NCBI GenBank assembly: GCA_964554495.1
Contig: CAZKOY010000002.1
Coordinates: 15,408 to 79,407 of the forward strand
Length of the DNA: 64,000 nucleotides
Reading direction: 5' to 3'
From: an uncultured Myxococcales bacterium
Lineage (GTDB): Bacteria; Myxococcota_A; Polyangia; Palsa-1104; JAEUJZ01
Shown: one piece after another, positions 1,342 to 52,788 of the stretch
How the letters are laid out: each line of letters starts with the position of its first letter
Position numbering within the stretch: position 1 is the stretch's first letter
Notes under the pieces: model-generated
The model's database searches: none
What the model was told of the DNA's origin: nothing
The model's input: the letters and a program-made list of their open reading frames with translations, nothing else
Position numbers and translations under genes: made by a program

Positions 1342-1577
1342 GCCAGCCAGCCTTCCCCGTCTTTCCTCTCGCACCAGCGTTCGACACAACCCAGTCAGAT
1401 CCTGCGCCCTGGCAGCGCTTCCCTAGTCGCAGACGACGGAATCCAAGGGGCCGCGTCCCGCCGAAATCCTTGCGCGCAGTGGTCGCTAACTGCGGTATGA
1501 ATGGCCCGCGTTCTTGTCTGATGTTTCGGTGCTGAATCGGCACCGCGTGGCCCTATCTCATTCCGCTGGAGACCTTG

Positions 1578-22489: not shown

Positions 22490-22539
22490 GCCGCCTATAG
22501 ACGCGCGATGCCGGGAAACGATCTGCGCTTGCGGTCACT

Positions 22540-22556
22540 GTCCGTTCGCGAGGCTG
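22540..22556 (+). promoter_or_regulatory. Candidate SOS/LexA-type operator upstream of recA (GTCCGTTC-N3-AGGCTG)
   Basis: GTCCGTTCgcgAGGCTG. The same 8+6 nt blocks with the same 3-nt gap occur upstream of lexA at 49392..49408. The right part, RYBYGTTC, resembles the right half of the reported Myxococcus LexA box. Confidence 0.3.
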
Positions 22557-22758
22557 TGCCCCCTAAAGCACGCGATCGTCTACGTGTTTTATGTCACTGG
22601 ACATTTGTGTGGGTGTCTTGTTATAGCGCGGGCAACACGGCGAGCACGGGGCAGCCATGACTGCGCAGCGACGACAACCATGCCGCCGAACGGCCCGACT
22701 GCGCCCCCGTTGTCAGCCCCCCGCCGCAAGAATGAGAGTCAAAGGAGACAAACCCGAC

Positions 22759-27901: not shown

Positions 27902-27917
27902 CTGTTCAAATGAACAG
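27902..27917. promoter_or_regulatory. Palindromic operator candidate CTGTTCA-AA-TGAACAG (fits CTGT-N8-ACAG)
   Basis: 7-bp perfect arms inside an AT-rich patch of the divergent MBL/GST intergenic region, 60 nt upstream of the GST ATG. Confidence 0.4.
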
Positions 27918-27976: not shown

Positions 27977-28588
27977 ATGAGTCTGACCTTCTACTACGCC
28001 CCCCAATCGAGTGCTTCGCCGGTCCACTGGACGCTGGAAGAGTTGGGCATTCCCTATGAGAAAGTGGCGATCGACATCCGCGCTGGCGAGAACAAGAAGC
28101 CCGAGTTCTTGAAGATCAACCCCAATGGCAAGGTGCCCGTCATCGTTCACAACGGCGTACCCATCTTTGAGTCGGCGGCGATTCAGATCTATCTGGGCGA
28201 GACGTTCGGCGTCGAAAAAGGCCTGTTCCCAGCGCCAGGCCCGCGCCGCGGCGAAGCGATGATGTGGATCATCTGGACCAACGTGACCCTGGGCGATGCC
28301 GTGATGCGCGTCGGACGCAACCTCAGCGAGTGGGCGCCGGCTGACGAGCGCAACGCCAAGGCCGGCGAGCGCGGCAAGACCGATGCGCTGGATCTGCTGG
28401 CCATCGTCGACACGGCGCTCACGGGACGCGACTACCTGCTCGGCGATCAGTTCTCGATCGCCGATCTGCACCTGGCCTCGTGGCTGGAGTACGTCGGCAT
28501 GATGGGCATCGACTACAGCGGTCTGGCTCGCCTTTCGGCCTGGGCCAAGCGCTGCACGTCACGCCCCGCCTGCGCCAAGGCTCCGTAA
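27977..28588 (+). CDS. Glutathione S-transferase
   Basis: FYYAPQSSASPVHWTLEELGIPYE...INPNGKVPVIVHNGVPIFESAAIQIYL is a thioredoxin-like GST N-domain. AAAGGAG RBS. Confidence 0.85.
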   Translation: MSLTFYYAPQSSASPVHWTLEELGIPYEKVAIDIRAGENKKPEFLKINPNGKVPVIVHNGVPIFESAAIQIYLGETFGVEKGLFPAPGPRRGEAMMWIIWTNVTLGDAVMRVGRNLSEWAPADERNAKAGERGKTDALDLLAIVDTALTGRDYLLGDQFSIADLHLASWLEYVGMMGIDYSGLARLSAWAKRCTSRPACAKAP

Positions 28589-39189: not shown

Positions 39190-41082
39190 ATGTCAGACGA
39201 GCGCGAGGAGAGCGAGAAGCTCGTCGGTGCGGTGCTAGCCAACACCTACCGCATCGAAAAGATGATCAACGAAGGCGGCATGGGCGCCATCTACCGAGCC
39301 CGCCACATTCGCACGGGCGGCACCTGCGCCGTGAAGATCCTGCACTCGCGCTCAGCCCAGAACAGCGAGCTATACGAGCGCTTCCAAGACGAGGCACGCA
39401 TCATCAGCTCTCTGCATCACCCGAACATCGTGACGGTGATGGATCTGGACAAGGACCAGACCGGCTGCGCCTTCATTGTCATGGAGCTTCTCGAAGGCGA
39501 AGACCTGCAAGACCGGCTAGAGCGCCTCGGCAAGCTGCCACTTGAAGACGCGCTCGAAATCGTCAAGCAGATCGGCAGTGCGCTGCAGGCGGCGCATCAG
39601 CGCGGCGTCATTCACCGCGATCTCAAGCCACGCAATATCTTCCTTTCGCAGCAGGATGTCGGCGGCAAGATGATCGAGGTGGCCAAGGTCATCGACTTTG
39701 GCGTGTCGAAGATCCCGCGACCGTCGGATCGCGCCACCAAGGATCTCTTGGTCCTGGGTACGCCGCGCTATATGGCGCCCGAAGGCGCGATGGGCCAGAA
39801 CTCGCAGATCGATGGCCGATCCGATCAGTGGTCGGTGGCGGTCATCTTGTATCGCATGCTGGCCGGCAAGCTGCCCTTTGATCAAGAGAGCGTCATCGAC
39901 CTGTTCAAGCAGGTGATCAACGACGATCCGACGCCGCTTGAGACGCTGGTTCCCGACCTGCCGCCCAACATCGCCGTCGCCGTCAAGCGCGCCTTGTCCA
40001 AGAAAAAGGAAGCGCGCTATCCGACGATGCTGGAGTTTCTGGCGGCGATCGAGCTTCCCGAGAACGAAAAAGCCAAGCTCCGCAAGAAGCGAGCCGCAGC
40101 CGCCAAAGCAGCGCAGGCCAGCCAGGCCGCAAGCCACTCGGGAAACGCGCCGGCCCTGGCGCCGCGTATCGCCTTTGTGCGCATGCTGGGCTTTGCTGGC
40201 ATCGGTGCGCTAGTCATGGCGCTTCTGCTGTTCCCCATCGTCCGCATGCTGTCGCGGCGCCCGGCCCAAGCCAGCGAGATGCTGCTTGCCGCCGAGCAAG
40301 CACTGATGGAAGAGCGCTGGGCCGATGCTCAGAGGCTGGCTGACCGCGTGCTCGAAATGAAGGGTGTCCCCGAAAGCGTGCGCGCCACCGCCGAGATCAC
40401 CAGTAAGCGAGCCAAGAACGGCACGCAGTCGCAGGAGTCGTACAAGAAGCTCGATGCAGCGATCGGCGCCAAGGACTATGACAGCGCGCTTCTGATCACG
40501 CGCGAGCTACCGCCGACCTTGCGCTTGAACCTGACGGCGCAGCAGCAGTACGAGATGCTTCTGACCTTGGTCGTCGGCAGCCACATCCAAAAAGCCGAAG
40601 CTGCGCGCACCGCCGGATCATGCGCCGACGTGCAGACTCACGTCGACAAGGTCCTTTCGGCTTCGCCTGACAACGAAGGGGCTCTTCAGGCGCGCTGGCG
40701 CCCCTGCGCTTCATTTGCTGGCGCTGTGCCACCGGGTCCCAAAAAGCTCGCCGGTTATCCGCCGGTCCGCGATGCACAGGGCACCGGGCTTGAGCTGCCG
40801 GGTGACTTTCCCGGCGGAGCAACCAGCCTGTCGGACATCGATCGGTTCCTGCGCGAAGCCCAAGTTGCGCACCAGCAAGGTCGCCTATGGCCGGCCGTCA
40901 GCTTGGCGCACGTCGCGACGGGTACGCCACTGCGCGCTCCAACCGCGTGGCGCATCGTCGGATCGACTGCCTGCGCGCTAAAGAACGCGACCTTGGTCGG
41001 CTTGGCCCTCGATCACCTCGACCCTGGCTCGCGCGAATTCGTTCGCGCCGCCTGCGAAAAAGCCGGCTTTTTGATCCGCTAG
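39190..41082 (+). CDS. Membrane Ser/Thr protein kinase with an extracytoplasmic helical region and a conserved C-terminal module
   Basis: NEGGMGAIYRA, CAVKIL, HRDLKPRNIFL, DFGVSK, GTPRYMAPE. TM segment FAGIGALVMALLLFPIV. C-terminal AWRIVGSTAC module. Confidence 0.9.
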   Translation: MSDEREESEKLVGAVLANTYRIEKMINEGGMGAIYRARHIRTGGTCAVKILHSRSAQNSELYERFQDEARIISSLHHPNIVTVMDLDKDQTGCAFIVMELLEGEDLQDRLERLGKLPLEDALEIVKQIGSALQAAHQRGVIHRDLKPRNIFLSQQDVGGKMIEVAKVIDFGVSKIPRPSDRATKDLLVLGTPRYMAPEGAMGQNSQIDGRSDQWSVAVILYRMLAGKLPFDQESVIDLFKQVINDDPTPLETLVPDLPPNIAVAVKRALSKKKEARYPTMLEFLAAIELPENEKAKLRKKRAAAAKAAQASQAASHSGNAPALAPRIAFVRMLGFAGIGALVMALLLFPIVRMLSRRPAQASEMLLAAEQALMEERWADAQRLADRVLEMKGVPESVRATAEITSKRAKNGTQSQESYKKLDAAIGAKDYDSALLITRELPPTLRLNLTAQQQYEMLLTLVVGSHIQKAEAARTAGSCADVQTHVDKVLSASPDNEGALQARWRPCASFAGAVPPGPKKLAGYPPVRDAQGTGLELPGDFPGGATSLSDIDRFLREAQVAHQQGRLWPAVSLAHVATGTPLRAPTAWRIVGSTACALKNATLVGLALDHLDPGSREFVRAACEKAGFLIR

Positions 41083-44000
41083 CTCTGCACACGCTCGTCG
41101 CTGCGCAGCCCTGCCAAGCGGTCGGCCTTGATCGAAACGGCACCGTCTTGTCGCTGCAAGATACCGTCGACGATCACAAGCGATGATCCACGCAGGGTCG
41201 CGCGATGCGCTTCATACACAGCCGGCGGCACGATGATGTTCAGAAGTCCGGCTTCGTCTTCCAAGGTCAAGAAACAGAAGCCTTTCGCCGTCGGTGGTCT
41301 TTGCCGCACGATGCACAGACCAGCGCTGCGTACCCGCGAACCTGGACGCGCTGCGCTCGCCTGCTGCGAGTTCAACACCCCCTGCTCGGCAAGCTGCGAT
41401 CGCAAAAGCGCAACAGGGTGTGGTCCGACGCTCAGCGAGGCGCCATGGAAGTCGGCGGCGATGCGCTCGGCAAGCGTCATCTCGGCAAGCGGTGACTCAG
41501 AATCGGCACTGGCACCGGCCAAGAGCCCCTCGCGATCGCCCATGGCGCTGACCTGCCACAGCGCGCTGCGTCGACTCGGCTGCCCGTCGAGGCGAGCAAA
41601 AGCACCAATCTCGGCCAAAGTCGCAAGATCGCGCGGCGACAAAAACGGCACCCGCTTGCGCAGGTCTCCCAGGCTCGCGTATGGCTCACGCTCGCGCTCT
41701 GCCACAAGTGCCTCGGCCGCTGCCTGCGACAGCCCGCGGACATAGCGCAGGCCCATGCGCAGCGCTGGCTGCTTGAGCGAGCCTCGCTGTGCCGATTCGG
41801 TGCCGTTCTCTGTCGCGTTCTCTGTCGCGTTCTCTGTCGCGTTCTCTGTCGCGTTCTCTGTCGCGTTCGCAGCCATCCCGTGCGCGGCCTGCACATCGCT
41901 CAGCGTGCAGCGCACCTGTGAAGTGTTGATCTCGATCGGCAGGACGCGCACACCGTGTCGCTGCGCGTCTTTGACCAGCGTCGCTGGGTGATAAAACCCC
42001 ATCGGCCATGCATTGAGCAGCGATGCATAAAACGCTGCGGGATGATGCGCTTTGAGATACGCACTGGCATAGGTCAAGTATGCGAAGCTGATGGCGTGTG
42101 ACTCAGGAAATCCGTATGCGGCAAACGCGGTGATCGACTGAACGATCTCGTCGGCGGCGGTCCCTGTGATGCCGCGCGCAGCCATGCCCTCGCGCAGCGT
42201 GGCCACCATGCGCGCCATCTTTTCAGCACCGTGCTTTCCGCCCATGGCCCGACGAAGCTCGTCGGCTTGCCCCCCGGTAAAACCGCCCGCGATCATCGCC
42301 ACGCGCATGATCTGTTCCTGAAACAGCGGGATACCCAACGTGCGCGCCAAGACCGGCTCTAGCGACGGATGCAGAAAGCGAACAGGCTCGCGTCCAGCAC
42401 GCCGCTTGAGATACGGATGCACCATGTCACCGATGATCGGGCCTGGACGAATCAGCCCGACCTGCACGACCAAGTCATAAAACGTGCGTGGCTGCGTGCG
42501 CGGCAAGATGGCCATCTGCGCCCGGCTTTCGATCTGGAATACTCCGACGGTGTCACCACGGGCAATCAGGTCATACGTCGCGCGATCGCCTTCGGGTAGC
42601 GTGTGCAGATCGAACGGGACTCCGTGATGGTGCGGCACAAGCGCACGCGCTTCGGCCAGCGCTGCCAGCATGCCCAAGCCCAATAAATCGATCTTCACAA
42701 TGCCCAGATCTTCGACATCGTCTTTGTCCCACTGCATGACGACGCGACCGGGCATGGCCGCGGGCTCTAGCGGCACGACTTCATCCAAGCGGCCGGCCGC
42801 GATGATCATGCCGCCGGGGTGCTGCGCAAAGTGGCGCGGCAGATCTTGGATCTGCGTCCACAGCGTCGCAAAGCGCTGACCAGCAAGCGAATCAGGATCG
42901 ATGCCGGCTTCGCGCATGCGCTGGGGTAGCGTGGCCGTTTCGCCCTGCCCTGTCTCGGGGCTGGGAGCGCGCGGATCTTCGTAATGCCCCACGGACTTGG
43001 CCAGGCGATCGATGGCTTCGCCGGGAAGCTCTAGCACTTTGCCCAGGTCGCGCACGGCGCTGCGCCCGCGATACGTGATGACGCTGCCAGTCATGGCGCA
43101 GCCGTGGGGGCCGTACTTGCGATACAGGTGCTGGATGATCTCTTCGCGCGCTGCACCCGATGGCAGATCGAGGTCGATATCGGGCCACTCACCACGCTCT
43201 TCGGACAGAAAGCGCTCGAACAGAAGATCCATCTTCAGCGGGTCGCAGGCCGTGATGCCAAGCGCGTAACAGACGGCAGAGTTGGCGGCGCTGCCGCGGC
43301 CCTGCGCCAAGATGCCGCGGGCTCGACACAGCTCGATGATGTCCCAGACGATCAGGAAATAGCCGCTGAGTCCGAGCTTGGCGATCAACCCAAGCTCACG
43401 ATCAAGCTGAGCACGAACTCGATCGGAAAATGGCTGAAAGCGCGTCGGGGCTGCGTCAAGCACGCGAGCGCGCAGAAAGTCATGCTGCGCGGCCTGCTTG
43501 TGCTCATGCGGCAGCGCGGGATCGCAGCCTGGTACTGGATAATCGGGAAAGCGATAGCCCAGATCGCGCAGCGAAAACTGGCAGCGTGCGGCGATGTCGA
43601 GCGTGCATTCCAGCGCTTGCGGTACGTCGGAAAACAGCGCAGCCAGGTCTTTGGGCGGCTTCAGATAGCGCTCGCCATTGCGCAGAAGTCGCGTGCCGGC
43701 CGTGCGCAGCGTCACGCATTGGCGCACGCAGTCCAGCGCATCGCACAAGAGCGCGCGGTCGCGCTGCGCGCTGCGCACATCGTTGCTGACAACCAGCGGA
43801 ATTTCATGCCGCTGCGACAGGCGCAACATGGCCAGGTTGCGACGATCTTCCTCGCGCTCGAAGTGGACCTGCAGCTCTAAAAACAGACCCTGCTGACCGC
43901 TGCGGCAGAACATCGATCGCAAGCGCTGCAGCGTCTTTTCGACGGCAGAAACGGCATCGCTGCGCCCCGAAGACACCTGGGAAAGCGCGTGGGCGACGAT

Positions 44001-44396
44001 CGAATCAGGGCCCCCGACGATGGCAATCAAGCCGGTGGACAGATCTTCAAGATCATCGCTGGACAGCGCGCCCTGTGGGCCGCTGCCTTGGCGGCGCTTC
44101 TCGCTGCTGATCAAGCGGCACAGGTGGCGATAGCCGACGGCGTTTTCGCACAGAAGCAGAAGCGGCTGCCCGTCAATGCAGAGCTCAGCTCCGACGATAG
44201 GATGGATGCCAGCCCGCGCCGCTGCTTTCAAAAAACGCGCCGCGCCGTATAGGCCGCAGCGATCGGTCAAGGCCAGCGCGCGATAGCCAAGCGCAGACGC
44301 GGCAGCGACGAGCTCTTCCGGCTGGCTTACGCCACGCAGAAACGAAAAGCCGCTCTGGCAGCGCAGCTCAACATAGTCACCAAGGGCCGATGACAT
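41079..44396 (-). CDS. dnaE2: Error-prone DNA polymerase DnaE2 (ImuC)
   Basis: N-terminal PHP YVELRCQSGFSFLRG. Pol III alpha core ...GIPLFQEQIMRVA.... OB-fold tail. 1105 aa, last gene after imuA-imuB. Confidence 0.95.
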   Translation of the reverse strand: MSSALGDYVELRCQSGFSFLRGVSQPEELVAAASALGYRALALTDRCGLYGAARFLKAAARAGIHPIVGAELCIDGQPLLLLCENAVGYRHLCRLISSEKRRQGSGPQGALSSDDLEDLSTGLIAIVGGPDSIVAHALSQVSSGRSDAVSAVEKTLQRLRSMFCRSGQQGLFLELQVHFEREEDRRNLAMLRLSQRHEIPLVVSNDVRSAQRDRALLCDALDCVRQCVTLRTAGTRLLRNGERYLKPPKDLAALFSDVPQALECTLDIAARCQFSLRDLGYRFPDYPVPGCDPALPHEHKQAAQHDFLRARVLDAAPTRFQPFSDRVRAQLDRELGLIAKLGLSGYFLIVWDIIELCRARGILAQGRGSAANSAVCYALGITACDPLKMDLLFERFLSEERGEWPDIDLDLPSGAAREEIIQHLYRKYGPHGCAMTGSVITYRGRSAVRDLGKVLELPGEAIDRLAKSVGHYEDPRAPSPETGQGETATLPQRMREAGIDPDSLAGQRFATLWTQIQDLPRHFAQHPGGMIIAAGRLDEVVPLEPAAMPGRVVMQWDKDDVEDLGIVKIDLLGLGMLAALAEARALVPHHHGVPFDLHTLPEGDRATYDLIARGDTVGVFQIESRAQMAILPRTQPRTFYDLVVQVGLIRPGPIIGDMVHPYLKRRAGREPVRFLHPSLEPVLARTLGIPLFQEQIMRVAMIAGGFTGGQADELRRAMGGKHGAEKMARMVATLREGMAARGITGTAADEIVQSITAFAAYGFPESHAISFAYLTYASAYLKAHHPAAFYASLLNAWPMGFYHPATLVKDAQRHGVRVLPIEINTSQVRCTLSDVQAAHGMAANATENATENATENATENATENGTESAQRGSLKQPALRMGLRYVRGLSQAAAEALVAEREREPYASLGDLRKRVPFLSPRDLATLAEIGAFARLDGQPSRRSALWQVSAMGDREGLLAGASADSESPLAEMTLAERIAADFHGASLSVGPHPVALLRSQLAEQGVLNSQQASAARPGSRVRSAGLCIVRQRPPTAKGFCFLTLEDEAGLLNIIVPPAVYEAHRATLRGSSLVIVDGILQRQDGAVSIKADRLAGLRSDERVQS
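41804..41870 (-). repeat. In-frame 12-bp tandem repeat (5.5 copies) inside dnaE2 encoding (NATE)5
   Basis: cgttctctgtcg x5 on the plus strand, then a partial cgttcgc. Translates on the minus strand to ANATENATENATENATENATENGTE. Confidence 0.95.
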
Positions 44397-44416
44397 GGGC
44401 CGCCTCGATCCCCGCT

Positions 44417-45784
44417 TCAGTCATAGACCGCATCGACGAACCAGCTGCCCTGATCTAGGTCATGGCGCAAGCGCAGCAGACTGCCGCTTTCCAGCTCGAC
44501 ATCGAAGTAATCGTGCGTCTGTCCGCCCTCGCAAAATCGATAGGGGCCGCCACTGCGCCGCACCTCGCCAGCATACGGTCCGCCGTCTAAGCGAGTCGGT
44601 GCCACGGCCTGACACAACACCTGCGCTGGTTGGGCAGGACGCAGGACGCGCGTCGCCAGAAACAGGCTCAGCGTTGCCGTCGCGGCGTTCATGTCTAATC
44701 CGCGCAAGGCTGTCGCAGCATCGCTGCGAGGTCGACGCAGGCTAGGCTCGACGAATTCGGCCAGATCCGCAGCCCCCGGCGTATAGCGGTCCGGTACCTG
44801 CGGCTGCCCGATGCGGCTCGCTCCGCACAGCGCTTGCAGGCGAGCCAGCGTCGTCGCCAAGCGCTCGGGCGCGGGGCCAGCCGGCGCAAACAGATCGAGC
44901 TGCACCGGCCGCGGGTCGACGGGCTGTGCGCGAATCTCGATGCGCTCGATGGCGGCACGCAGCGGCTGTGATTCCAGCGACACGCGCACAAGATCCAGCA
45001 GCGCAGACACTTTCTGCGTCGGAGCAGCCACCGCGATGGCGCGACGCTCTTCCCCATGCGAGGCCCCGCGGGCCAAGAGTGGCTCTGCAAGCTGCAGGCG
45101 TAGTTGCAAGCCGCCACACGCCGATGATCGCGCCCGCAACCTCGTCACGACGCGATCGAGCAGCCCACGAAACACGAACAAAAGCGGCTCTAAATCCGCC
45201 ACAGGATCGAGCAGACCTTGCTCTTCGACAACCTCTGCCGATGGGGGCGAGGGGTAAAGCGGAGCCTGGCACTCGCCGCAGGCCAGCTGATGCAGAAGCA
45301 GACCACTCTGCCCCAGGCGAGCAGCTACGGCTTTTCGTGGCAAGCGGGCCAAGTCGCCGACCTGTGCAAGGCCCCACTGCTGCAAGCGCACGCTCTGATC
45401 CGCCGACGGATCCAGCACGGACAAGGGCAGCGAGGCGATGGCGCTGCGTTCCCAGCCAGCCGGCACGATCGCCGACGGAGCCTGCGGACTCAGCCCGCGA
45501 GCCCGCACCTGCGCCACGGCCTTGTTGCTGGCGATGGCTACACCGACAGAAAAATCCAGCTCTGTCGCCATGGCCTGCATGGCCGAGACGAGCTCATATT
45601 CACTGGGGTACAGCCGTCGCAGATCGCCGACTTCTAAGCAGACCGTGGGATCCAAAAGGGAACGCCCGCGCTCAATCCGCGGCGAAAATGCCGTGGCCAG
45701 ATCGTGCAGTGCATCCAAACGAGACGCCGCAGGCGCGACCGCATCAAACAGGCGAAGACAGGCAATCCGCGAAGGCAGGCGCAT
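44417..45784 (-). CDS. imuB: ImuB, Y-family polymerase-like mutasome subunit
   Basis: Start trimmed to the ATG at 45784 (MRLPSRIACLRLFD...). Y-family-like core ...VGVAIASNKAVAQV.... Positioned between imuA and dnaE2. 16-nt overlap with the imuA stop. Confidence 0.85.
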   Translation of the reverse strand: MRLPSRIACLRLFDAVAPAASRLDALHDLATAFSPRIERGRSLLDPTVCLEVGDLRRLYPSEYELVSAMQAMATELDFSVGVAIASNKAVAQVRARGLSPQAPSAIVPAGWERSAIASLPLSVLDPSADQSVRLQQWGLAQVGDLARLPRKAVAARLGQSGLLLHQLACGECQAPLYPSPPSAEVVEEQGLLDPVADLEPLLFVFRGLLDRVVTRLRARSSACGGLQLRLQLAEPLLARGASHGEERRAIAVAAPTQKVSALLDLVRVSLESQPLRAAIERIEIRAQPVDPRPVQLDLFAPAGPAPERLATTLARLQALCGASRIGQPQVPDRYTPGAADLAEFVEPSLRRPRSDAATALRGLDMNAATATLSLFLATRVLRPAQPAQVLCQAVAPTRLDGGPYAGEVRRSGGPYRFCEGGQTHDYFDVELESGSLLRLRHDLDQGSWFVDAVYD

Positions 45785-45798
45785 GGCAGTCTCCGTCG

Positions 45799-46689
45799 CT
45801 ATCGCAGCATGCGCAGGGCGATCGAGTCGCCGGGAGCAGACAGTCGGCTGCGCGTCACTTCGATGGCTGTGCGCTGGCTGTGCAGAAGCCAGCGACCGCC
45901 GGGAACGCGCTGCCAGATGGCTTCTCCGCTGGCGCAGCGCAGGGTTGCCACGGCAAAGCTGCCGCTGACCGCTTCGTCGCTGACCAGCAAGAGCGCGGTG
46001 TTGGCTTTTTCGGCTCGTCCCAGCACGCGAGACCAAGCCGCGCTCGATGCGCAGGCCCGTGCCGCCTGCTTGTTGCGCGTCGCGGCCCCCCCCAAATAAA
46101 GAACCACCAGGCCAAAGCCCCCAGCCGACAGCAGCAAATCCAGCGCCTTCAGTCCGTCGCTGACGCGGTCTTCAGGGCTGGCCGTTGTTGCTTCGTTTGC
46201 CGATGCGCTCTTCCCGACTGCGGCGCGATCTGTCTCGATGGACTCGCGATCGCCAGTGCGAGGGCGAACCCACAGCAGCTGATGCAGATCGACGCCGATA
46301 CGCTCTGCAGTCTGCACATCGAGCGCATCTTCGACGTCGATGAATGCACACAGCTCACCGCGCTGCGTTGCCGCGGCCAGGGCCAAAAGGGTAAAGGCTA
46401 GCTTGCCAGCCCCACCCGCGATCTCGACGAGCTTGCCGCGCGGCAGGCCCCCGCGCAGAGCGGCATCCAGCGGCTCTAGCGTCGTCGAAAGCGGAGCCGG
46501 AGCATGACGGGCTGGAGCCTGCGCCGCGAGCTTCTGCCGCAGCATGGACAGGGCATCGGCTTGGCCAGGATTACCACCAGCAGCCAAGCGGCTCGGGCCA
46601 AACGAGCGCAGCGACTCTTCTGCGCTTGCTTCCGCCGGCAGAGAGAAATCGCTCGTCGCTGAAAGCGCTCGGGCAGCCATACTTGACAT
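45799..46689 (-). CDS. imuA: ImuA, RecA/SulA-like mutasome subunit
   Basis: LDAALRGGLPRGKLVEIAGGAGKLAFTLLALAAATQRGELCAFIDVEDALD is a RecA-fold-like core without a canonical P-loop lysine context. Start uncertain: ATG at 46689, 46680 or 46719. Confidence 0.8.
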   Translation of the reverse strand: MSSMAARALSATSDFSLPAEASAEESLRSFGPSRLAAGGNPGQADALSMLRQKLAAQAPARHAPAPLSTTLEPLDAALRGGLPRGKLVEIAGGAGKLAFTLLALAAATQRGELCAFIDVEDALDVQTAERIGVDLHQLLWVRPRTGDRESIETDRAAVGKSASANEATTASPEDRVSDGLKALDLLLSAGGFGLVVLYLGGAATRNKQAARACASSAAWSRVLGRAEKANTALLLVSDEAVSGSFAVATLRCASGEAIWQRVPGGRWLLHSQRTAIEVTRSRLSAPGDSIALRMLR

Positions 46690-46780
46690 ACGAACAGTGT
46701 ACAAATGAGCAGTGATCAAGCAAGAAGAAAACAGGTAAACACAGGCAAAATTTTACCTGCTGACCTTATCCGGCCCTGGA

Positions 46781-48196
46781 TTAGGACGGCGCGTGCAGGC
46801 TGCGATACGTCGCCGATAGCAGCGGTCGTGGCAGAGCCAGAACGCGTACCAGCGGCGCTCGCCCCGGCACACTCAGCCACTCGTCGCTGCGCTGCACGGA
46901 AAAGACGGCCGGCGTCGCGTGAAACTGGTCACAGGCGACGACTCCGCGCAGGACCTCATAGCCATCGCCAGGATATCCGTCGACGAGGACCGAGCAGCCT
47001 GGCGGCGTGCGCGTAAACGCCCAGGGCTTGACGAAGAAGTGCGGCTCGCCGGGCGGATGCGTCGTGAAGTACTTGCTCAAATACAGAAGCGCGCCGGGGT
47101 GTTTGTCGACAAACCCCGCGCCGTACAGACGACGAAAGCCCTGAAAAAGTGGCTGCGCTTTCTGCTCTAGCTCGCTGGCGTCGAAGTCCAGGCTGACGCT
47201 GGCCCCGTCGAAGCGAGCGCGAAAATCGAGCAGGTTGCGAAACACGACATGCTGCAAGCGCGGAGCCTGCGGGGCCCGCCGCACTGGCTCTGGCCCCAGG
47301 GCGGTCACGAGGCTTTCGTCGCTGATCAGCTCAAACTCCGTCGGTCCTGCGACGATGATCTCGCCGTGGATTTGCGATCCAAAAAGATCCGCGCGAGCAG
47401 CAGCCAGCCCGCGCGACACTGGGCCGTCTTCGGGCCGCACCTTGATCTGCTTGCGATAGCGACGGGTAGCACTGCCCTCTTTGTGGCGAAAATAGCTGGC
47501 GTCGTAAAACGAGCAGTGAGCTCGCCCTACGTCTTTGCACTCGGCGAGAGAGCGGACGGCAAACGTGGCGGCGAGCGGCATGACGGCCAGGCAGGCAAGC
47601 TCTCCGCCTAGCTGCAGCGTTGGGCTGCGCTGAGCCGCCTCGGACACAGACAGCGTAAGGCACAGCGGGATCAGGCCCGCGGTGGTTTGCGATGGATCGG
47701 CGATCTCCGCTTCGCTGTACAGCGTCTCTGCCAACAGCCAGCTATGCGAGCGACGATTTCCGACGGGCATTAGGCGCAAGCCAAGCCCGCGGTCTGGCTG
47801 CACAAACAGGCCTGTCCACACCACCAGGACCGGCCGTCGTCCCAGGCGCCGCGGCGAGGCCAAAAACAGCGCATGCTCCGTCAGAAAACGGTGCCATGCA
47901 CTGCCTTTTTGCAGCCAGCCAGCGGCAAGCGCCCGCGCTAGGCCCTGGGCATAGCGTTGCTGCAGTCGTGCCAGCGACTCTGCGTCGAGATCCAGCGAGA
48001 ACCCCAGAGGGCCGCGCGCCAGCGGCCACTTTTCCTGCAAGACCACCTGCCAGCCGAACGCATTGCCTTGCAGAAGCGGCACACAGGCCTGGGCCACGCG
48101 CAGCGGGACCGAGCCGCGCAGCGTCGGTGACCTTCGCTCTAAACGAAACAGGCCAGCCAAGGCATCAGCGACCGAAAAACAGACCAGATCGGCCAT
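46781..48196 (-). CDS. Hypothetical 471-aa protein with two similar beta-rich lobes (DUF6065-like, from memory)
   Basis: ATG at 48196. N-lobe ACVPLLQGNAFGWQVVL...VVWTGLFVQPDRGLGLRLMPVGNR. C-lobe FFVKPWAFTRTPPGCSVLVDGYPGDGYEVLRGVVACDQFHATPAVF. 18 nt after the upstream gene and 91 nt before imuA. Confidence 0.6.
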   Translation of the reverse strand: MADLVCFSVADALAGLFRLERRSPTLRGSVPLRVAQACVPLLQGNAFGWQVVLQEKWPLARGPLGFSLDLDAESLARLQQRYAQGLARALAAGWLQKGSAWHRFLTEHALFLASPRRLGRRPVLVVWTGLFVQPDRGLGLRLMPVGNRRSHSWLLAETLYSEAEIADPSQTTAGLIPLCLTLSVSEAAQRSPTLQLGGELACLAVMPLAATFAVRSLAECKDVGRAHCSFYDASYFRHKEGSATRRYRKQIKVRPEDGPVSRGLAAARADLFGSQIHGEIIVAGPTEFELISDESLVTALGPEPVRRAPQAPRLQHVVFRNLLDFRARFDGASVSLDFDASELEQKAQPLFQGFRRLYGAGFVDKHPGALLYLSKYFTTHPPGEPHFFVKPWAFTRTPPGCSVLVDGYPGDGYEVLRGVVACDQFHATPAVFSVQRSDEWLSVPGRAPLVRVLALPRPLLSATYRSLHAPS

Positions 48197-48214
48197 GGCA
48201 CAAGATCCGAGGAC

Positions 48215-49150
48215 TCAGCGACGAGGGCGCTTGGCCGCGGCCTGAATGTTCTGCCACAGCGCGCGATCCTGTGGCGTTCCCAAAAGGCGCAGACACTCTC
48301 CTAACCGCTGACGGTGGGGCGGGGAAAAATCGAGTGCGGCCAGCGAGCGCACGCGCGTGGCCAGCGCGGGGCTGAGCGCCGTACTCGTCGGTGTCGTGGC
48401 ACGACGCGCGGGCGGTGATGCCACCAAGCACAGCTCTCCTGCGGCCTGGGCTGCCACGCTGGGATCGTCGCTGTGCAGAGCAATCTCGGCCAACGCCGGG
48501 CTGCGATCGTGTTGGCTGAGCACCGCCAAGGCGGACATGGCGGCACGCTGCAGGCCCGGCTGCTCACGTTCCTGAGCCAGCGTCGAAAGCAGACCTGAAA
48601 AAGGCGCCCATGCAGCCACCGGCAGTGCTGCCAACGCCCCCAACGCAGCCTCGCGCAGAGGCAATGGCAGGCTGCCTGAACGATCGAGGGTGATGGCCAC
48701 CAGGCGACGGGCCGCGTCGGTGACTTCTGGCGTCAAGTCCATGCCCTGCGGTGGCCCGCCAAAGTCGCCCTCCCAGGGAGCAAGGCCAATGCCCTCGCCG
48801 ATTCGCAGCAGGGTCTCGGCGACGGTCCGAGTCATGCCTTCGTCAAGGCGCTGGCTGCGTACCAGCGGCAGCACGGTATCCAAAAAGATCGGCAGCAGCT
48901 GACACGCTCGCTCGGGATGCTGCAGCGACATAAGACCGAGACCGCGCAGAAGGACCGTCGCCGGCCGGCTCTGCCCACGCGTCGCACTATCGGCCCACAG
49001 GGACAGTAGGCGCGAGCCCCCCAGACGGGCCGCCAAGCGCTCTAGCTCGATGGGATCGCCCGCCACCGCCGACAGCTCACTCGGACGGGGCAGAGCAACG
49101 TCCAGAGCCAGCGGCGACAGGGATAAGAGCCCGAGCAGGACCACTAACAC
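48215..49150 (-). CDS. Hypothetical helical-repeat (HEAT/ARM-like) protein with hydrophobic N-terminus
   Basis: GTG start at 49150. MLVVLLGLLSLSPLALDVA. Repeated ...LREAALGALAAL..., ...LQRAAMSALAVL..., ...DPSVAAQAAGELCLV... HEAT-like units. First gene of the cluster, divergent from lexA. Confidence 0.55.
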   Translation of the reverse strand: MLVVLLGLLSLSPLALDVALPRPSELSAVAGDPIELERLAARLGGSRLLSLWADSATRGQSRPATVLLRGLGLMSLQHPERACQLLPIFLDTVLPLVRSQRLDEGMTRTVAETLLRIGEGIGLAPWEGDFGGPPQGMDLTPEVTDAARRLVAITLDRSGSLPLPLREAALGALAALPVAAWAPFSGLLSTLAQEREQPGLQRAAMSALAVLSQHDRSPALAEIALHSDDPSVAAQAAGELCLVASPPARRATTPTSTALSPALATRVRSLAALDFSPPHRQRLGECLRLLGTPQDRALWQNIQAAAKRPRR

Positions 49151-49391
49151 GTGCTTCTCCGTATCTGTCGCGGAGCCGCTGCAGGCCGCGCGTCCATGCC
49201 GCGATGGGGACCTAGCCTCTTGATGCAGCTACGTCGCATTCTTTACAGCCTACTCGCGACGGAGCGAGGGCGAACAAGAATTCGTCCGCGATCTCGCGAA
49301 CTTGCACCTGCTCAAGGCCCTTTGCCGACCGTTCTGTGGACGGCCGGGCCGCCTGCACAGACCCTGCATTTCGGGGGTTTGACATAGGACC

Positions 49392-49408
49392 GTCCGTTCA
49401 GTAGGCTG
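49392..49408 (+). promoter_or_regulatory. Candidate LexA operator overlapping a putative lexA promoter
   Basis: GTCCGTTCagtAGGCTG lies immediately downstream of a TTGACA hexamer (49379..49384). GTTCAGT occurs twice (49396 and 49415). The motif is shared with the recA upstream region. Confidence 0.35.
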
Positions 49409-49497
49409 CCAAAAGTTCAGTCCCCCCCCTGAGTCCGCAAAAGGCCATCCTCCGACGCGCTGGCCCGCGAATTCAGACCCGGCAGGCGAGGTCGATC

Positions 49498-50349
49498 ATG
49501 AGAGACAACGACGGAAAACAGCATTCAACGACGACGATGACGCGGCGAGGGCGAATAAGTCGTCCCCCCGCAGTCAGCCCTCGCCCGGCCCTGCGCCTGG
49601 CCGGTGATCGCGACACAGCACTGGAAGGCGACCGCGGTGAAGCCGACGAGCCTGGGCGCGATCGCCTGACCGATCGGCAGCGTCAGGTGTTGCAGTTCAT
49701 TAGCCAGAGCATCCGCAGCCGCGGCTATCCCCCGACGCTGCGTGAGATCGGTCAGCATATGCAGATCCGATCGACAAATGGCGTCAACGACCATCTGCGA
49801 GCGCTCGAACGCAAGGGTTTCTTAGAGCGCCACGATCTGAAGTCGCGAGCCCTGCGCGTCAAGAACCCCGACGGAGAGCAGAGCGACGATGGCCAGAGCC
49901 TATCGCGCGCGGCCAGTCAGGCCATGGTCACCGCCGCAGCGGCCCTTTCCGAAGACGTCGTCGAAGTGCCGCTGCTTGGCCGCGTCGCCGCCGGTCAGCC
50001 GCTCTTGGCGTTTGAGCAGCGCGAAGACACGGTGCAAGTTGACCGCTTCTTTTTGGGCAATCACCGCGATGTCTTCGCGCTGCGCGTCAAGGGCGACTCG
50101 ATGATTGAAGCCGGTATCCACGACGGCGACTATCTGTTCGTCAAGAAACAGTCGGTGGCCCACGCGGGCGACATCGTCGTCGCGATGATCAACGACGAGG
50201 CGACGGTGAAGTACTTTTATCCCGAGCGCGATCGCATCGTCTTTAAGCCCGCCAATAGCCGCATGGTGCCCATCGAGGTCAAAAAGAGCGAGTTCAAGCC
50301 CGTAAACTTGCTCGGCACCGTCGTCGGTATCTATCGCCGCATCACGTAG
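49498..50349 (+). CDS. lexA: LexA repressor (S24 peptidase) with N-terminal extension
   Basis: [29 protein letters not shown] (wHTH), cleavage-site context [27 protein letters not shown], and catalytic Lys context TVKYF. The start could be the ATG at 49537. Confidence 0.92.
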
Positions 50350-50354
50350 TGACG

Positions 50355-52649
50355 TCAGAAGCGCCCACGGACACCGAGCGACGGCAAGATCCAGTTAAAG
50401 CCGTTTAGCTGCGGCATGTCGAAGCGCGTGATGTTGCCCTGCCGCGGATAGGCGATACCAAAAACCGCTTGCCCAAAGGTGGTGTTGACCACTTCCAGAA
50501 ACACATCCAGAGCAAAGCGACGAAAGATCCACTCGCGATCGATGCGCACATCAAACTGGATGGTGTCGGGGATGCGCTGGTTGTTGCGCACGGTGCCGGC
50601 GCCGTCGGGGGGAATGAGCTGGGTGTACGGCCGACCCGTCGAATAAAAAAACCGCCCGCCCAGCATCAGGTTCCAAGGCAGCCGTAGCTGCAGCACCGCG
50701 TTTAGCACGTGCGTCTGGTCATAGTCCGCAGGCCGCAAGCCGCAGGTGTACGAGCGCTCCGCCCGCCCCAGCGTATACGCTAGCCAGCCTGTTACGCGGC
50801 CACGCTGACGACGCAGCATCAGCTCCATGCCATAGGACACACCGTCGACCTGCCGCATCACCTGCGCGATATAGCCCGTCAGCGACTCGGGCGGCGGCGA
50901 GGTGCAGAGCTGCGGCGTGAAGTCGAGGACGACATCGTTGGATTTTTCGTAGCGCTGATAGAAGCCGGTCAGCGCAAAGAACAGGTTCCAAGGCAGCGTC
51001 GCTTCTTGTCCCAAAGCCAGGTGCGTCGCGCGCTGCAGACCCAGCTGCAAAGCAAAGGTATCGATGCCGGGCAGCGGCACGGGAAAGCTCGGCGGCTGCT
51101 GATAGATTCCGACGCCACCGTGCAGCGTCAGCCACGATGTCAGCTGCGATCGAAGCTGCAGTCGCGGATCGAAACCAAGCAGCGTCACCGTCCCCGCGCG
51201 ATACACATCAACTCGCCCAGATAGCGTCAACTGCAGGCGGCCGGGATGCAGCGGACCGACGGTGGCGACACCATACGCCGCGCCAACCATGCCATCGCGC
51301 GATGTGCCCAGCTCGCCGAGATCATCGGGCCGCGCTCGCACGGGATCGGGGTCAAAGTTCTCGGCAGTAAAACGCGAGATCTCGCCGTCGATACCAACGC
51401 GCAGGCGCAGCCAGGCACCATGCTCGCCGGTCCCGATCTGCGTGCGATAGCTGGCCAAGGCGCGCATGTTCAGAGACAGCTTGCGCACGCCATTGCCTTG
51501 AAAGATGGTCATCTCATCGACACCGCCGACGGCTCCGGCTTCCACCTGCCAGCCATGACCACTGTGGCGATACACAGCCTGCAGGCGGTGAAACATCACG
51601 CGAAAGGTGTTGTCGACGGGCTTCTGCGCCATCGCCGACAGGTTGGGGTCGACAATAGTCACCTGATCGTACGAACCGAGGACCTGGACCGAAAGCCCAC
51701 GGACATCGAGGCGCAGATGATAGTCCCAGTACCCAACGTCGACGCGGCTGTCGATGGCATGCACGATCGGACCGGGATAGCCATAGTGCCCCGACAGCGA
51801 CACGCGCAGACCGCCGGGCAAAGGCGCCTCTAGCAGCGCCGAGACATCGTAAAGCTTTACTTCCAGCTCACCATGCCAAGCATCGGCCCGCGCCGCGCGC
51901 GTGCGGCCCACCATCACGCCGCCGCCGTAGCGCCCCAGCGACGCATCGTAGGCACCGGGATAGAAGTCGATCTGATCGACCAAGCGCGCGTGCGCAATGC
52001 CGCCCCCCACGAGCAAATGAAACAGCTGCGGCACGCGCATGCCGTCGAGAAAAAAGCCGTTCATCCCGGGACTGGCACCGCGCACAACAAACACCGGCAG
52101 CAGCGGAACCGGCGTCGCAACTCCCGGAAGAAGTCCCATCACGCGAAATGGATCGCCCAGGCTGCCCGGCAGCGTCGTCAGCTCTTCGCCGCGCAGGCTG
52201 GTCTGCTGGCCTTGGTGCGGCGGATCCGCGCGCACCACCGTCGCAAACGGACTGTTCCCGCGGGCTCGACGCAGCAGAAACTCGTGGCGATTTTCGCCGG
52301 GACGTAGCACAAGCTCTTGCCGCAGCGACTCAAAACCTGCTGCGATGATGCGCAGCCGCAGCTTCCCCGCCGACACCTTCAGCGTGAAGTCACCGTCGGC
52401 ATTGCTCAGCACCGATGCCGCTTCACGCGACGGCGAGCGGGCGTTGTCAGCTTCAGGTGAAGCTGCTTGTGCGACGGGCTCGATGCGAATCTCGGCCGCG
52501 GCGATGCGCGCAATCGATCCGCGGGCAAACACGCGGCCCTGCAGAATCGCGGGCGCCTCGTCGGCTTTTGCAGTCGAAGCCCGAAGCAAAAGCCCCCAAG
52601 TCAGCGAGGCCAAGACAGCGATTGGCAGCGCCCAGCGCGACACAGACAT
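50355..52649 (-). CDS. Oar-like outer-membrane beta-barrel (CarboxypepD_reg + TonB-dependent-receptor-like)
   Basis: Start trimmed to the ATG at 52649 (signal peptide MSVSRWALPIAVLASLTWGLLLRASTAKA). GRVFARGS...DGDFTLKV is a Cna/CarboxypepD-like domain. Plug-like LPGSLGDPFRVMGLLPGV. C-terminal ...GVRGRF. Confidence 0.75.
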   Translation of the reverse strand: MSVSRWALPIAVLASLTWGLLLRASTAKADEAPAILQGRVFARGSIARIAAAEIRIEPVAQAASPEADNARSPSREAASVLSNADGDFTLKVSAGKLRLRIIAAGFESLRQELVLRPGENRHEFLLRRARGNSPFATVVRADPPHQGQQTSLRGEELTTLPGSLGDPFRVMGLLPGVATPVPLLPVFVVRGASPGMNGFFLDGMRVPQLFHLLVGGGIAHARLVDQIDFYPGAYDASLGRYGGGVMVGRTRAARADAWHGELEVKLYDVSALLEAPLPGGLRVSLSGHYGYPGPIVHAIDSRVDVGYWDYHLRLDVRGLSVQVLGSYDQVTIVDPNLSAMAQKPVDNTFRVMFHRLQAVYRHSGHGWQVEAGAVGGVDEMTIFQGNGVRKLSLNMRALASYRTQIGTGEHGAWLRLRVGIDGEISRFTAENFDPDPVRARPDDLGELGTSRDGMVGAAYGVATVGPLHPGRLQLTLSGRVDVYRAGTVTLLGFDPRLQLRSQLTSWLTLHGGVGIYQQPPSFPVPLPGIDTFALQLGLQRATHLALGQEATLPWNLFFALTGFYQRYEKSNDVVLDFTPQLCTSPPPESLTGYIAQVMRQVDGVSYGMELMLRRQRGRVTGWLAYTLGRAERSYTCGLRPADYDQTHVLNAVLQLRLPWNLMLGGRFFYSTGRPYTQLIPPDGAGTVRNNQRIPDTIQFDVRIDREWIFRRFALDVFLEVVNTTFGQAVFGIAYPRQGNITRFDMPQLNGFNWILPSLGVRGRF

Positions 52650-52788
52650 CACGGGCAGCTTAGTCAGGTTTCCCGTCGGAAGCGAGCCTGTATCGACAGA
52701 TACATGAGGTGACAAACGGGGTGCGTCTCGACAAACTCACCGGCAACCGCCGCGGCGCTTGCATACGGGACGCGCTTTCGCCGAAGGT

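Follow-up and report, generated by a model that had tools for sequence, protein, structure and literature searches.

Genes of the locus

The window, meaning the whole 64-kb stretch of DNA that was analysed, contains a plus-strand lexA gene that faces five closely spaced genes on the minus strand, encoding a 311-aa protein, a 471-aa protein, ImuA, ImuB, and DnaE2 (Table 1). An earlier sequence-only reading of this DNA had listed these ORFs, and a check of the sequence finds all of them in place. The gaps it had given are also correct, with 18 nt separating the 311-aa gene from the 471-aa gene, 20 nt between imuB and dnaE2, 347 bp separating lexA and the 311-aa gene, and, given that imuA starts at the ATG at 46689, 91 nt between the 471-aa gene and imuA. 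The 16-nt overlap of imuA and imuB has not been reproduced, since no in-frame start codon is present there. The first in-frame ATG of imuB is found at 45784, just after a GGAG sequence, which leaves 14 nt between the two genes, likewise in the related locus L001.

Table 1. Positions of the genes and regulatory features of the locus in the window.
Feature	Position	Strand	Description
lexA	49498..50349	+	283 aa; TIGR00498, 225 bits (cutoff 111); LexA_DNA_bind (PF01726) and Peptidase_S24 (PF00717)
Putative lexA promoter/operator	49379..49421	+	TTGACA (49379-49384), 17-nt spacer, TAGGCT (49402-49407); twin GTTCAGT (49396-49402, 49415-49421)
Putative promoter of the 311-aa/471-aa pair	49247..49277	-	TTGTTC (49277-49272), 19-nt spacer, TAGGCT (49252-49247)
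311-aa HEAT/ARM-repeat protein gene	48215..49150	-	Short hydrophobic N-terminus; 13 homologues; AF2 pLDDT 84.5
471-aa two-lobed protein gene	46781..48196	-	dUTPase-like fold in the model; orphaned member of the MNIO-NTase-TIGR04222-X-TauD-linked family
A/T-rich inverted repeat	46734..46757	-	GGTAAA-N12-TTTACC, just upstream of the putative imuA -35
imuA promoter-like region	46696..46723	-	TTGCTT (46723-46718), 16-nt spacer, TACACT (46701-46696); putative
Candidate SOS-box-like site	46712-46697	-	CTGCTCATTTGTACAC; overlaps the spacer and -10 of the putative imuA promoter
imuA	45799..46689	-	RecA-like; 296 aa from ATG 46689
imuB	44417..45784	-	Inactive Y-family-like; 455 aa from ATG 45784; start taken at the in-frame ATG that follows a GGAG ribosome-binding site
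dnaE2	41079..44396	-	Error-prone DNA polymerase III alpha; 1105 aa; NF004225, 1176.6 bits (cutoff 939)

The LexA of the window has both the N-terminal LexA DNA-binding domain and the S24 self-cleaving domain. DnaE2 passes the NF004225 cutoff as a member of the error-prone Pol III alpha subfamily and shows PHP, DNA_pol3_alpha, finger, HHH_6, and OB domains. The matches of ImuB are weak (IMS_C with 20 bits against a cutoff of 20.7, plus Pol IV); its position and orthology agree with the genes called at the ImuB position of relatives, and its orthologues in L001 and L006 show 65–67% identity. ImuA carries a GGAGKL P-loop-like motif and matches the RecA Pfam family over the N-terminal core (57.8 bits), and its match to the NF033429 ImuA family (40.8 bits) is under the cutoff of 150. 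In L085, imuA is called from an ATG placed equivalently with respect to the -10 hexamer.

LexA-regulated imuA-imuB-dnaE2 cassettes of the Caulobacter, Pseudomonas, and Mycobacterium type and the ImuA3 type of Myxococcus xanthus have been described (PMC12926913, PMC12288472, bioRxiv 10.1101/2020.12.14.422803). The cassette of the window resembles them in the gene order A-B-E2, the putative ImuA, which is RecA-like and consistent with the ImuA3 group (PMC12926913), the putative inactive Y-family-like ImuB, the error-prone DnaE2, the Myxococcus-type SOS-box-like site in the putative imuA promoter, and the nearby lexA. Unlike in the known cassettes, lexA is divergent and two unrelated genes lie between it and the cassette. 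In M. xanthus, dnaE2 is 6.6 kb away, each gene has a separate promoter, and the split genes are under mixed LexA/DdiA control, whereas in the window the three genes are contiguous and the imuA start looks leaderless.

Neither the 311-aa nor the 471-aa ORF has a Pfam or NCBIfam match. Both genes are under purifying selection. The comparison set comprises ~150 related loci. Compared with the 96%-identical locus L004, the 311-aa gene has a dN/dS of 0.08 and the 471-aa gene one of 0.13, and the values span 0.08–0.30 in the comparisons overall.

Promoter-like regions and SOS-box-like sites

A sigma-70 consensus scan of 44300-49600 gives no promoter above threshold, so every promoter discussed here is proposed from conservation. 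The candidate operator of the sequence-only reading (49392-49408) falls within a strongly conserved block that would contain the lexA promoter and operator. This block is invariant across six aligned loci, including the distant L084, and is also present in L090 and L091. The GTTCAGT-N12-GTTCAGT arrangement (49396-49421) occurs once in the window, where 0.01 occurrences are expected by chance. The putative promoter of the 311-aa/471-aa pair, missed by the sigma-70 scan, belongs to a TyGWTC-19-TAsGCT block that is conserved in position in the alignment of the window, L004, L001, L005, and L006.

The imuA gene appears to keep its own promoter with an SOS-box-like operator. The imuA ATG is 6 nt past the predicted -10, and the start is probably leaderless. 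The candidate site CTGCTCATTTGTACAC is the best match of the window to CTRHAMRYBYGTWCAS, with 1 mismatch, and one such match per window is within chance (0.57 expected). At 3 mismatches the motif is depleted in the window (67 matches vs 95 expected), so the weight of the site comes only from its position and conservation. An SOS-box-like site with at most 1 mismatch is found upstream of imuA, together with the promoter-like region, in 10 of 10 related loci from three lineages, whereas 0 of 600 background windows have such a site. The lexA site of the window itself has 3 mismatches to the published consensus, which makes the motif model imperfect for this lineage.

The inverted repeat next to the putative -35 may be an UP element or a regulator site. 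It is conserved in the window, L001, L004, L005, L006, and L034, is degenerate in L085 and L088, and has been kept despite the insertion of a methyltransferase gene upstream of it. In L005, L006, and L034, this SAM methyltransferase gene lies on the opposite strand and separates the 471-aa gene from imuA, which rules out a single operon in those three loci. In the L085 and L141 lineages, an A/T-rich gap of 280–354 nt precedes imuA, with the same promoter-like region. The 91-nt gap of the window has no predicted intrinsic terminator or terminator-like hairpin, so read-through into imuA is possible there.

Folds and gene neighbourhoods of the two additional proteins

The 311-aa protein had been called HEAT-like, and its AF2 model bears this out, being all-alpha with 16 helices. 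The helix pairs are stacked in a solenoid, as in HEAT/ARM proteins, and the Foldseek matches are importins (importin-4), the PP2A-A subunit, and designed armadillo proteins, with probability 1.0. No Pfam HEAT match is found in the protein. The N-terminus is hydrophobic as described earlier, but a signal peptide is doubtful, since there is no basic n-region and the hydrophobic stretch is ~6 residues long in distant homologues.

The 311-aa gene is divergent from lexA in 9 of 9 loci with readable context, and these loci differ in the gene that follows it and in what lies on the far side of lexA. In L084, L090, L091, and L092 (38–42% identity) the gene is divergent from lexA and followed by a Polysacc_synt or Ser/Thr kinase gene; the distant loci have neither the 471-aa gene nor imuABC. 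Model and neighbourhood are best explained by a HEAT/ARM protein that would act as a scaffold and whose gene stays linked to lexA. The possibility that it is a diverged form of the TIGR04222 protein encoded before the 471-aa homologues elsewhere has been considered and rejected (hhalign probability 0.1–0.3%).

SOS-induced envelope proteins whose genes diverge from lexA are known in Gram-positive bacteria, namely in Bacillus subtilis (yneA), Mycobacterium tuberculosis (Rv2719c/chiZ), and Corynebacterium (divS). The 311-aa gene is similar in its conserved position opposite lexA and in the hydrophobic N-terminus of its product. It differs in that the product is a HEAT/ARM protein with no LysM or cell-wall domain, and in that the 311-aa-proximal half of the intergenic region, including the putative promoter, shows no LexA box-like site, with no SOS-box-like match at up to 3 mismatches.

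The two-lobed description of the 471-aa protein agrees with its AF2 model (pLDDT 85.9, pTM 0.88), which has two beta-rich lobes. The protein had also been described as having no obvious DNA-metabolism motif. This needs qualifying, as the best PDB matches of the model are dUTPases and dCTP deaminases. No dUTPase or DCD family of Pfam or NCBIfam is matched. The top Foldseek match is the EBV dUTPase (probability 1.0, E = 1e-4), with low TM-scores (0.26 and 0.41). The likeness to the monomeric, internally duplicated herpesvirus dUTPase and to the dUTPase/dCTP-deaminase fold (PDB 2bsy, 2we0, 1f7o, 2r9q) is in the two beta-rich lobes in one chain, at ~10% identity. Unlike the herpesvirus enzyme, the 471-aa protein shows no internal duplication detectable by sequence (hhalign probability 0.6%). 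The family profile has no match among PDB sequences even at E = 10. Assignment to DUF6065 (PF19541), on which no literature has been found, has been rejected at 11.9 bits against a gathering threshold of 26.6; weak DUF6065 matches in 19 of 34 relatives (best E = 6.7e-6) cover only the N-terminal RVAQxCxP...N..G motif. The family has >400 homologues and ~50 invariant residues, including His, Asp, and Glu, all of which are retained in the orphan copy of the window. Its members are probably two-lobed dUTPase-fold proteins and enzymes.

The usual slot of this family is the fourth in an MNIO(BufB-like)-nucleotidyltransferase-TIGR04222-X-TauD operon (108 of 139 loci). MNIO, NTase, TIGR04222, and/or TauD genes are beside the homologue in 63 of 80 genome loci and 45 of 59 metagenome loci, in the order MNIO, NTase-like, TIGR04222 with a Cys/Gly tail, 471-aa family member, and TauD. 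The MNIO protein, a multinuclear non-haem iron oxidase, is most similar to BufB and HvfB, the TauD protein is a dioxygenase, and the X protein is a membrane protein that matches TIGR04222 and has C-terminal CGGGGGC repeats. Cys-rich TIGR04222 proteins are putative MNIO substrates (PMC12452194), and to these MNIO (DUF692, BufB/HvfB-like)-TIGR04222 RiPP-like clusters the 471-aa family adds a conserved member that had not been named before. Unlike such clusters, the 64 kb of the window contain no MNIO, NTase, TIGR04222, or TauD gene, the Sorangium MNIO, NTase, X, and TauD proteins giving no tblastn match, and the 471-aa gene stands alone beside imuABC. The SOS motif is not enriched upstream of the MNIO operons, where the mismatch distribution equals background. 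ImuA-like matches near the MNIO operons of L077 and L081 are not imuA, as they cover only a 70–80-aa RecA-core stretch that also matches the recA of the window. Among standalone homologues, one in Variovorax is located ~1.5 kb from an ada-oxygenase-alkB alkylation-repair operon, and the neighbours of an acidobacterial one (L043) are uninformative.

In L085, L086, and L141, the MNIO-NTase-X-471 genes are followed by imuA-imuB-dnaE2, with neither lexA nor the 311-aa gene present, and this sister-lineage operon directly upstream of imuABC has no TauD. The 471-aa homologue of L088 is likewise directly upstream of imuABC. In the NJ tree of the family, the window clade is sister to L007, L085, and L088 and is nested inside the MNIO-linked family; L007/L087, within the same clade, have no imuABC. 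The adjacency of the 471-aa gene and imuABC has been kept in three sub-lineages (54–100% identity) while both outer flanks were reshuffled. In the window clade, lexA and the 311-aa gene stand in the place of the first three genes of the operon.

Proposed assembly of the locus and alternative readings

These patterns suggest that the two additional genes came in separately, the 311-aa gene together with lexA and the 471-aa gene together with imuA. Neither is therefore likely to be a novel component of the mutation machinery. The reading that we favour, with somewhat better than even confidence, is a lineage-specific junction of two independently conserved pairs, most likely with three transcription units, and not a five-gene SOS mutasome operon. 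The first unit would be lexA, autoregulated via the twin GTTCAGT boxes overlapping its own promoter. The second would be a 311-aa/471-aa bicistron with a promoter ~100 nt upstream of the 311-aa start and >100 bp from the lexA operator. The third would be imuA-imuB-dnaE2, read from its own conserved promoter with the Myxococcus-type SOS-box-like site in the spacer and -10. As for the order of events, an ancestral MNIO operon without TauD may have come to adjoin imuABC on its upstream side. Later, in the window clade, lexA and the 311-aa gene would have taken the place of the first three genes of the operon, which would leave the 471-aa gene as a still-selected orphan on the transcript of the 311-aa gene.

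The sequence-only reading had proposed that the two genes could be accessory components or cargo of the SOS mutasome, for which the conserved putative promoter and SOS-box-like operator of imuA and the methyltransferase insertions leave little support. Its other proposal, an insertion between lexA and the cassette, is closer to the evidence, except that the locus would be a junction of two conserved pairs and not an insertion of a two-gene module. It had also named a lack of synteny with imuABC as an argument against a link. Such a lack is seen for most of the 471-aa family, in which 108 of 139 loci are MNIO/TauD-linked, and for the distant 311-aa homologues, but not for the three sub-lineages that keep the 471-aa/imuABC adjacency, which makes a functional link possible. 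The 471-aa gene would have stayed beside imuABC after the MNIO operon broke up, and its retention there with its invariant residues is what a functional link would also predict.

It is unlikely, although conceivable, that the 311-aa/471-aa pair is SOS-regulated cargo, with LexA acting from within the 347 bp shared with lexA, or from a site not recognised as such, and the pair being damage-induced without supplying mutasome subunits, in analogy to yneA, Rv2719c/chiZ, and divS. The pairing of lexA and the 311-aa gene in every readable locus while the flanks vary, kept down to 38% identity, suggests a shared regulation, which may have escaped the motif search. The putative 311-aa promoter also has, in the window and L004, a spacer (CTCCGTCGCGAGTAGGCT) that is similar to GTCCGTTCGCGAGGCT upstream of recA and to the lexA sequence GTCCGTTCAGTAGGCT. 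However, this resemblance is not conserved in L001, L005, and L006, the twin GTTCAGT boxes are ~245 nt away from the start codon of the 311-aa gene and >100 bp upstream of the promoter-like block of that gene, and no SOS-box-like match lies near that block.

Less likely again is a 471-aa protein recruited from the MNIO operon as a dUTPase-fold nucleotide-binding or -hydrolysing protein with an influence on the dNTP pool or on which substrates DnaE2 uses. The dUTPase and dCTP deaminase matches, the imuABC adjacency in three sub-lineages with differing upstream partners, the intact invariant residues and low dN/dS of the orphan, and the Variovorax homologue near a repair operon would all fit such a role. 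On the other hand, the family context is overwhelmingly MNIO/TIGR04222/TauD without DNA-repair genes, L007/L087 of the same clade have no imuABC, and the junction with imuA tolerates the insertion of an opposite-strand gene. The TM-scores are low and there is no dUTPase family or PDB sequence match, and imuABC works without such a gene, both generally and in M. xanthus (PMC12288472, PMC12926913).

A combination of these ideas is very unlikely, namely that a nucleotide- or DNA-damage-linked enzyme captured from the MNIO/TIGR04222 operon became a fourth, lineage-specific component of ImuA-ImuB-DnaE2, with the HEAT protein as a scaffold and the pair damage-induced from the region shared with lexA. 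Least probable is one five-gene operon from the lexA-divergent promoter with the internal imuA promoter as an auxiliary, which would suit the single strand, the gaps of 18, 91, 14, and 20 nt, and the lack of a predicted hairpin before imuA, but conflicts with the conserved imuA-proximal promoter and box, the methyltransferase gene inserted in three relatives, and, in the L085 and L141 lineages, the long A/T-rich gap with the same promoter-like region. Neither SOS control of the pair nor a mutasome link of the 471-aa protein has support, though both are possible.

If the locus is indeed a junction of two conserved pairs, tight spacing alone would be a poor ground for proposing new mutasome subunits. 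With its stable pairing to lexA in a single myxobacterial lineage, the HEAT-repeat gene would be a candidate new SOS-associated gene, and an uncharacterised, enzyme-like family of >400 members is assigned to the MNIO/TIGR04222/TauD clusters. The window would then offer a natural experiment in which the 471-aa gene has been orphaned beside imuABC with selection maintained. The putative imuA promoter, in turn, would combine a conserved SOS-box variant with a probable leaderless start in a contiguous myxobacterial imuABC cassette.

Layout and Gene Identities

The ORF list bears out the lexA-divergent five-gene layout of the sequence-only reading, with all five minus-strand ORFs at the coordinates claimed, and direct reading of the sequence confirms the gaps of 18, 91, and 20 nt. 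An overlap of 16 nt between imuA and imuB is not reproduced, and there is no in-frame start codon at that place; the first in-frame imuB ATG (45784) is preceded by GGAG and leaves a 14-nt gap after imuA, a spacing also found in the relative L001. Family scans identify dnaE2 firmly (NF004225, 1176 bits), while imuB gives a weak Y-family/IMS_C match and imuA is a RecA-like protein scoring under the ImuA model cutoff. Pfam and NCBIfam scans return no match for either the 311-aa or the 471-aa protein. Compared with a 96%-identical locus (L004), the dN/dS values of their genes (0.08 and 0.13, respectively) are within the range of lexA, imuA, and imuB, indicating that both are real, selected genes.

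Coordinates of genes and sequence features in the window and, where named, in related loci (L numbers)
Feature	Position	Strand	Basis or remark
lexA	49498-50349	+	ORF list; TIGR00498, 225 bits (firm)
311-aa gene	48215-49150	-	ORF list
471-aa gene	46781-48196	-	ORF list
lexA promoter/operator block, TTGACA-17-TAGGCT; GTTCAGT-N12-GTTCAGT	49396-49421 (GTTCAGT-N12-GTTCAGT)	+	Conservation
Putative 311-aa promoter pattern, TyGWTC-19-TAsGCT	~100 nt upstream of start codon	-	Position-conserved
imuA promoter-like pattern, A/T-rich GGTAAA-N12-TTTACC, then TTGCTT, 16-nt spacer, TACACT		-	Conservation
GTCCGTTCGCGAGGCTG	22538-22560		~200 nt upstream of likely recA start
recA ORF	22657-23919	+	
CTGTTCAAATGAACAG	27902-27917		Near-perfect palindrome, CTGT-N8-ACAG type
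beta-CASP metallo-beta-lactamase gene	26294-27736	-	
Glutathione S-transferase gene	27977-28588	+	
Ser/Thr kinase gene	39190-41082	+	Convergent with dnaE2; 3' ends share 4 nt
TonB-dependent-receptor-like gene	50355-52715	-	Convergent with lexA; 5-nt gap
Inserted methyltransferase gene	L006 11448-12638	-	396 aa, SAM-dependent
Hexanucleotide tandem repeat (CCTTGT)n	L091 ~1440-1490		~7 copies, just upstream of 311-aa homologue start
Group II intron-type reverse transcriptase	L085 19645-20292		RVT_1 + GIIM; ~2.7 kb downstream of dnaE2, past Metallophos gene
471-aa homologue and neighbours, Variovorax rhizosphaerae	L053 5965-11281		Standalone; divergent from 2OG-FeII_Oxy_3 gene

Regulatory Sequences and a Probable imuABC Unit

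A sigma-70 scan returned no promoter anywhere in the cluster region, so all promoters described here are inferred. At lexA, the promoter/operator block occurs only once in the window (0.01 expected by chance) and is invariant even in the distant loci L084, L090, and L091. The promoter-like pattern of the 311-aa gene lies over 100 bp from the lexA boxes and has no SOS-box-like site with ≤3 mismatches near it.

Every locus compared shares a conserved stretch of about 70 nt upstream of imuA. The imuA ATG is located 6 nt past the conserved TACACT -10 hexamer without a Shine-Dalgarno sequence (window 46689-46701; L085 11713-11727), suggesting that the imuA mRNA has no leader in any of the three lineages. 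The sequence CTGCTCATTTGTACAC, spanning the spacer and -10 of this promoter, is similar to the M. xanthus SOS box, CTRHAMRYBYGTTCAGS (PMC9705874), and is the window's best match when that consensus is relaxed; 0.57 such matches per window are expected by chance. A site at ≤1 mismatch is present upstream of imuA in 10 of 10 loci from the three lineages, compared with none of 600 random 320-nt windows. In L005, L006, and L034, a SAM-methyltransferase gene on the opposite strand separates the 471-aa gene from imuA, and the imuA promoter block is the same despite this insertion. Based on the conserved promoter and box and on this insertion, imuABC is probably an autonomous, LexA-controlled unit. 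In the window, no terminator has been found in the 91-nt gap between the 471-aa gene and imuA, so read-through from upstream genes into imuA may occur.

Two further sites have been observed in the window. Upstream of recA, GTCCGTTCGCGAGGCTG is very similar to GTCCGTTCAGTAGGCTG of the lexA promoter and may represent a recA SOS operator and -10. The palindrome CTGTTCAAATGAACAG, intergenic between the metallo-beta-lactamase and glutathione S-transferase genes and with two mismatches to the SOS-box pattern, could be a site for LexA or another regulator.

The lexA/311-aa and 471-aa/imuABC Pairs

The description of the 311-aa protein as HEAT-like holds, as its model folds into an all-alpha solenoid (pLDDT 84.5) with structural matches to importins, the PP2A-A subunit, and designed armadillo proteins. 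Its N-terminus is hydrophobic, but a signal peptide is doubtful because a basic n-region is absent and the hydrophobic stretch shortens to only about six residues in distant homologues. Only 13 homologues have been found, and the gene is divergent from lexA in all nine loci with readable context. In the distant loci L084, L090, L091, and L092 (38-42% identity), a Polysacc_synt-type or Ser/Thr kinase gene (the latter directly in L090) lies downstream of the 311-aa homologue, with neither the 471-aa gene nor imuABC there.

The 471-aa family is much larger, with over 400 homologues, most of them from Polyangia and some from Acidobacteriota and Variovorax. Comparison of neighbours by tblastn places its members inside a conserved operon in 63 of 80 genome loci and 45 of 59 metagenome loci, in the order MNIO, nucleotidyltransferase-like protein, TIGR04222 membrane protein, 471-aa homologue, and TauD-type dioxygenase. 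The MNIO enzyme belongs to Pfam MbnB_TglH_ChrH, with BufB/HvfB as the nearest NCBIfam models, and the TIGR04222 protein has a terminal Ser/Gly/Cys tail, for example CGGGGGCGGGGGC. The operon, with a CGGGGGC-repeat tail on its TIGR04222 protein, is widespread (L002, L003, L085, and about 100 other loci), and in L085 a C39 peptidase gene is immediately upstream of the operon. Cys-rich TIGR04222 proteins have been listed as putative MNIO substrates in a 2025 enzyme survey (PMC12452194). The 471-aa family and TauD appear to be undescribed members of MNIO/TIGR04222 RiPP-like clusters.

The gene order of the cluster, where the 311-aa gene runs divergently from lexA and the 471-aa gene and imuA come after it, is limited to the closest relatives, L001, L004, L005, and L006 (471-aa identity 61-96%), where imuA-imuB-dnaE2 is complete as far as the contigs reach. 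The L034 contig (DAORCZ010000798.1) ends early and covers the 471-aa, methyltransferase, imuA, and imuB genes in window-type order (67% identity over the covered part; 63-67% across the genes). It is labelled "Pseudomonadota bacterium" but probably comes from Myxococcota and was mis-binned or mis-classified. In L085, L086, and L141 (54-56% identity), a TauD-less MNIO-NTase-TIGR04222-471 operon immediately precedes imuA-imuB-dnaE2, and neither lexA nor the 311-aa gene accompanies it; in L088 the 471-aa homologue likewise comes immediately before imuABC. L007/L087 (49%) carry the TauD-less operon followed by a Big_2 gene, without imuABC. In a neighbour-joining tree, the window clade branches as the sister of L007, L085, and L088, nested in the MNIO-linked family.

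In the simplest history, a TauD-less MNIO operon would have come to sit upstream of imuABC, and lexA with the 311-aa gene would later have taken the place of its first three genes in the window clade. Homology of the 311-aa protein to the TIGR04222 protein encoded ahead of the 471-aa homologue at other loci has been considered and rejected. Since the 311-aa gene is paired with lexA elsewhere without the 471-aa gene or imuABC, and is unrelated to the TIGR04222 gene, the cluster is most likely a junction of two pairs with separate histories. The proposed unusual insertion is recast as such a junction of two conserved pairs.

The 471-aa Protein and the Mutasome

The 471-aa protein is two-lobed as predicted, with two beta-rich lobes in a confident AlphaFold model (pLDDT 85.9, pTM 0.88). 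The best PDB structural match is EBV dUTPase, a monomeric enzyme with an internal duplication (E = 1e-4, probability 1.0), followed by trimeric dUTPases and dCTP deaminases, at low TM-scores of 0.26 and 0.41. At the level of sequence, links are weak or missing. The family has no match among PDB sequences, and no internal repeat is detectable by sequence. Against DUF6065, the window protein reaches 11.9 bits, and 19 of 34 relatives give hits that are also below threshold. Fifty columns are invariant in the 34-member alignment, several His, Asp, Glu, Lys, and Arg residues among them.

A nucleotide or DNA-damage role of this protein linked to the mutasome is improbable in our estimate. The possible dUTPase-like fold of the model would fit such a role, and the window's orphan copy retains every family-invariant residue. 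Three sub-lineages keep the 471-aa/imuABC block despite changes in the outer flanks, and the selection argument for the lexA/311-aa pair applies equally to this block. The Variovorax homologue, divergent from a 2OG-Fe(II) oxygenase gene, is also ~1.5 kb from an operon of ada, "Oxygenase-NA" (PF09859), and alkB-like genes. On the other hand, MNIO/TIGR04222/TauD is the dominant context of the family, L007/L087 of the same clade lack imuABC, the 471-aa/imuA junction tolerates the methyltransferase gene, and characterised ImuABC systems work without such a partner (PMC12288472, PMC12926913). Comparative genomics gives no support to the reading of the two genes as new mutasome components.

The known LexA/imuABC locus thus occurs here in a new form, with lineage-specific neighbours. 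The HEAT gene paired with lexA and the uncharacterised family of the 471-aa protein in MNIO clusters offer the main leads.
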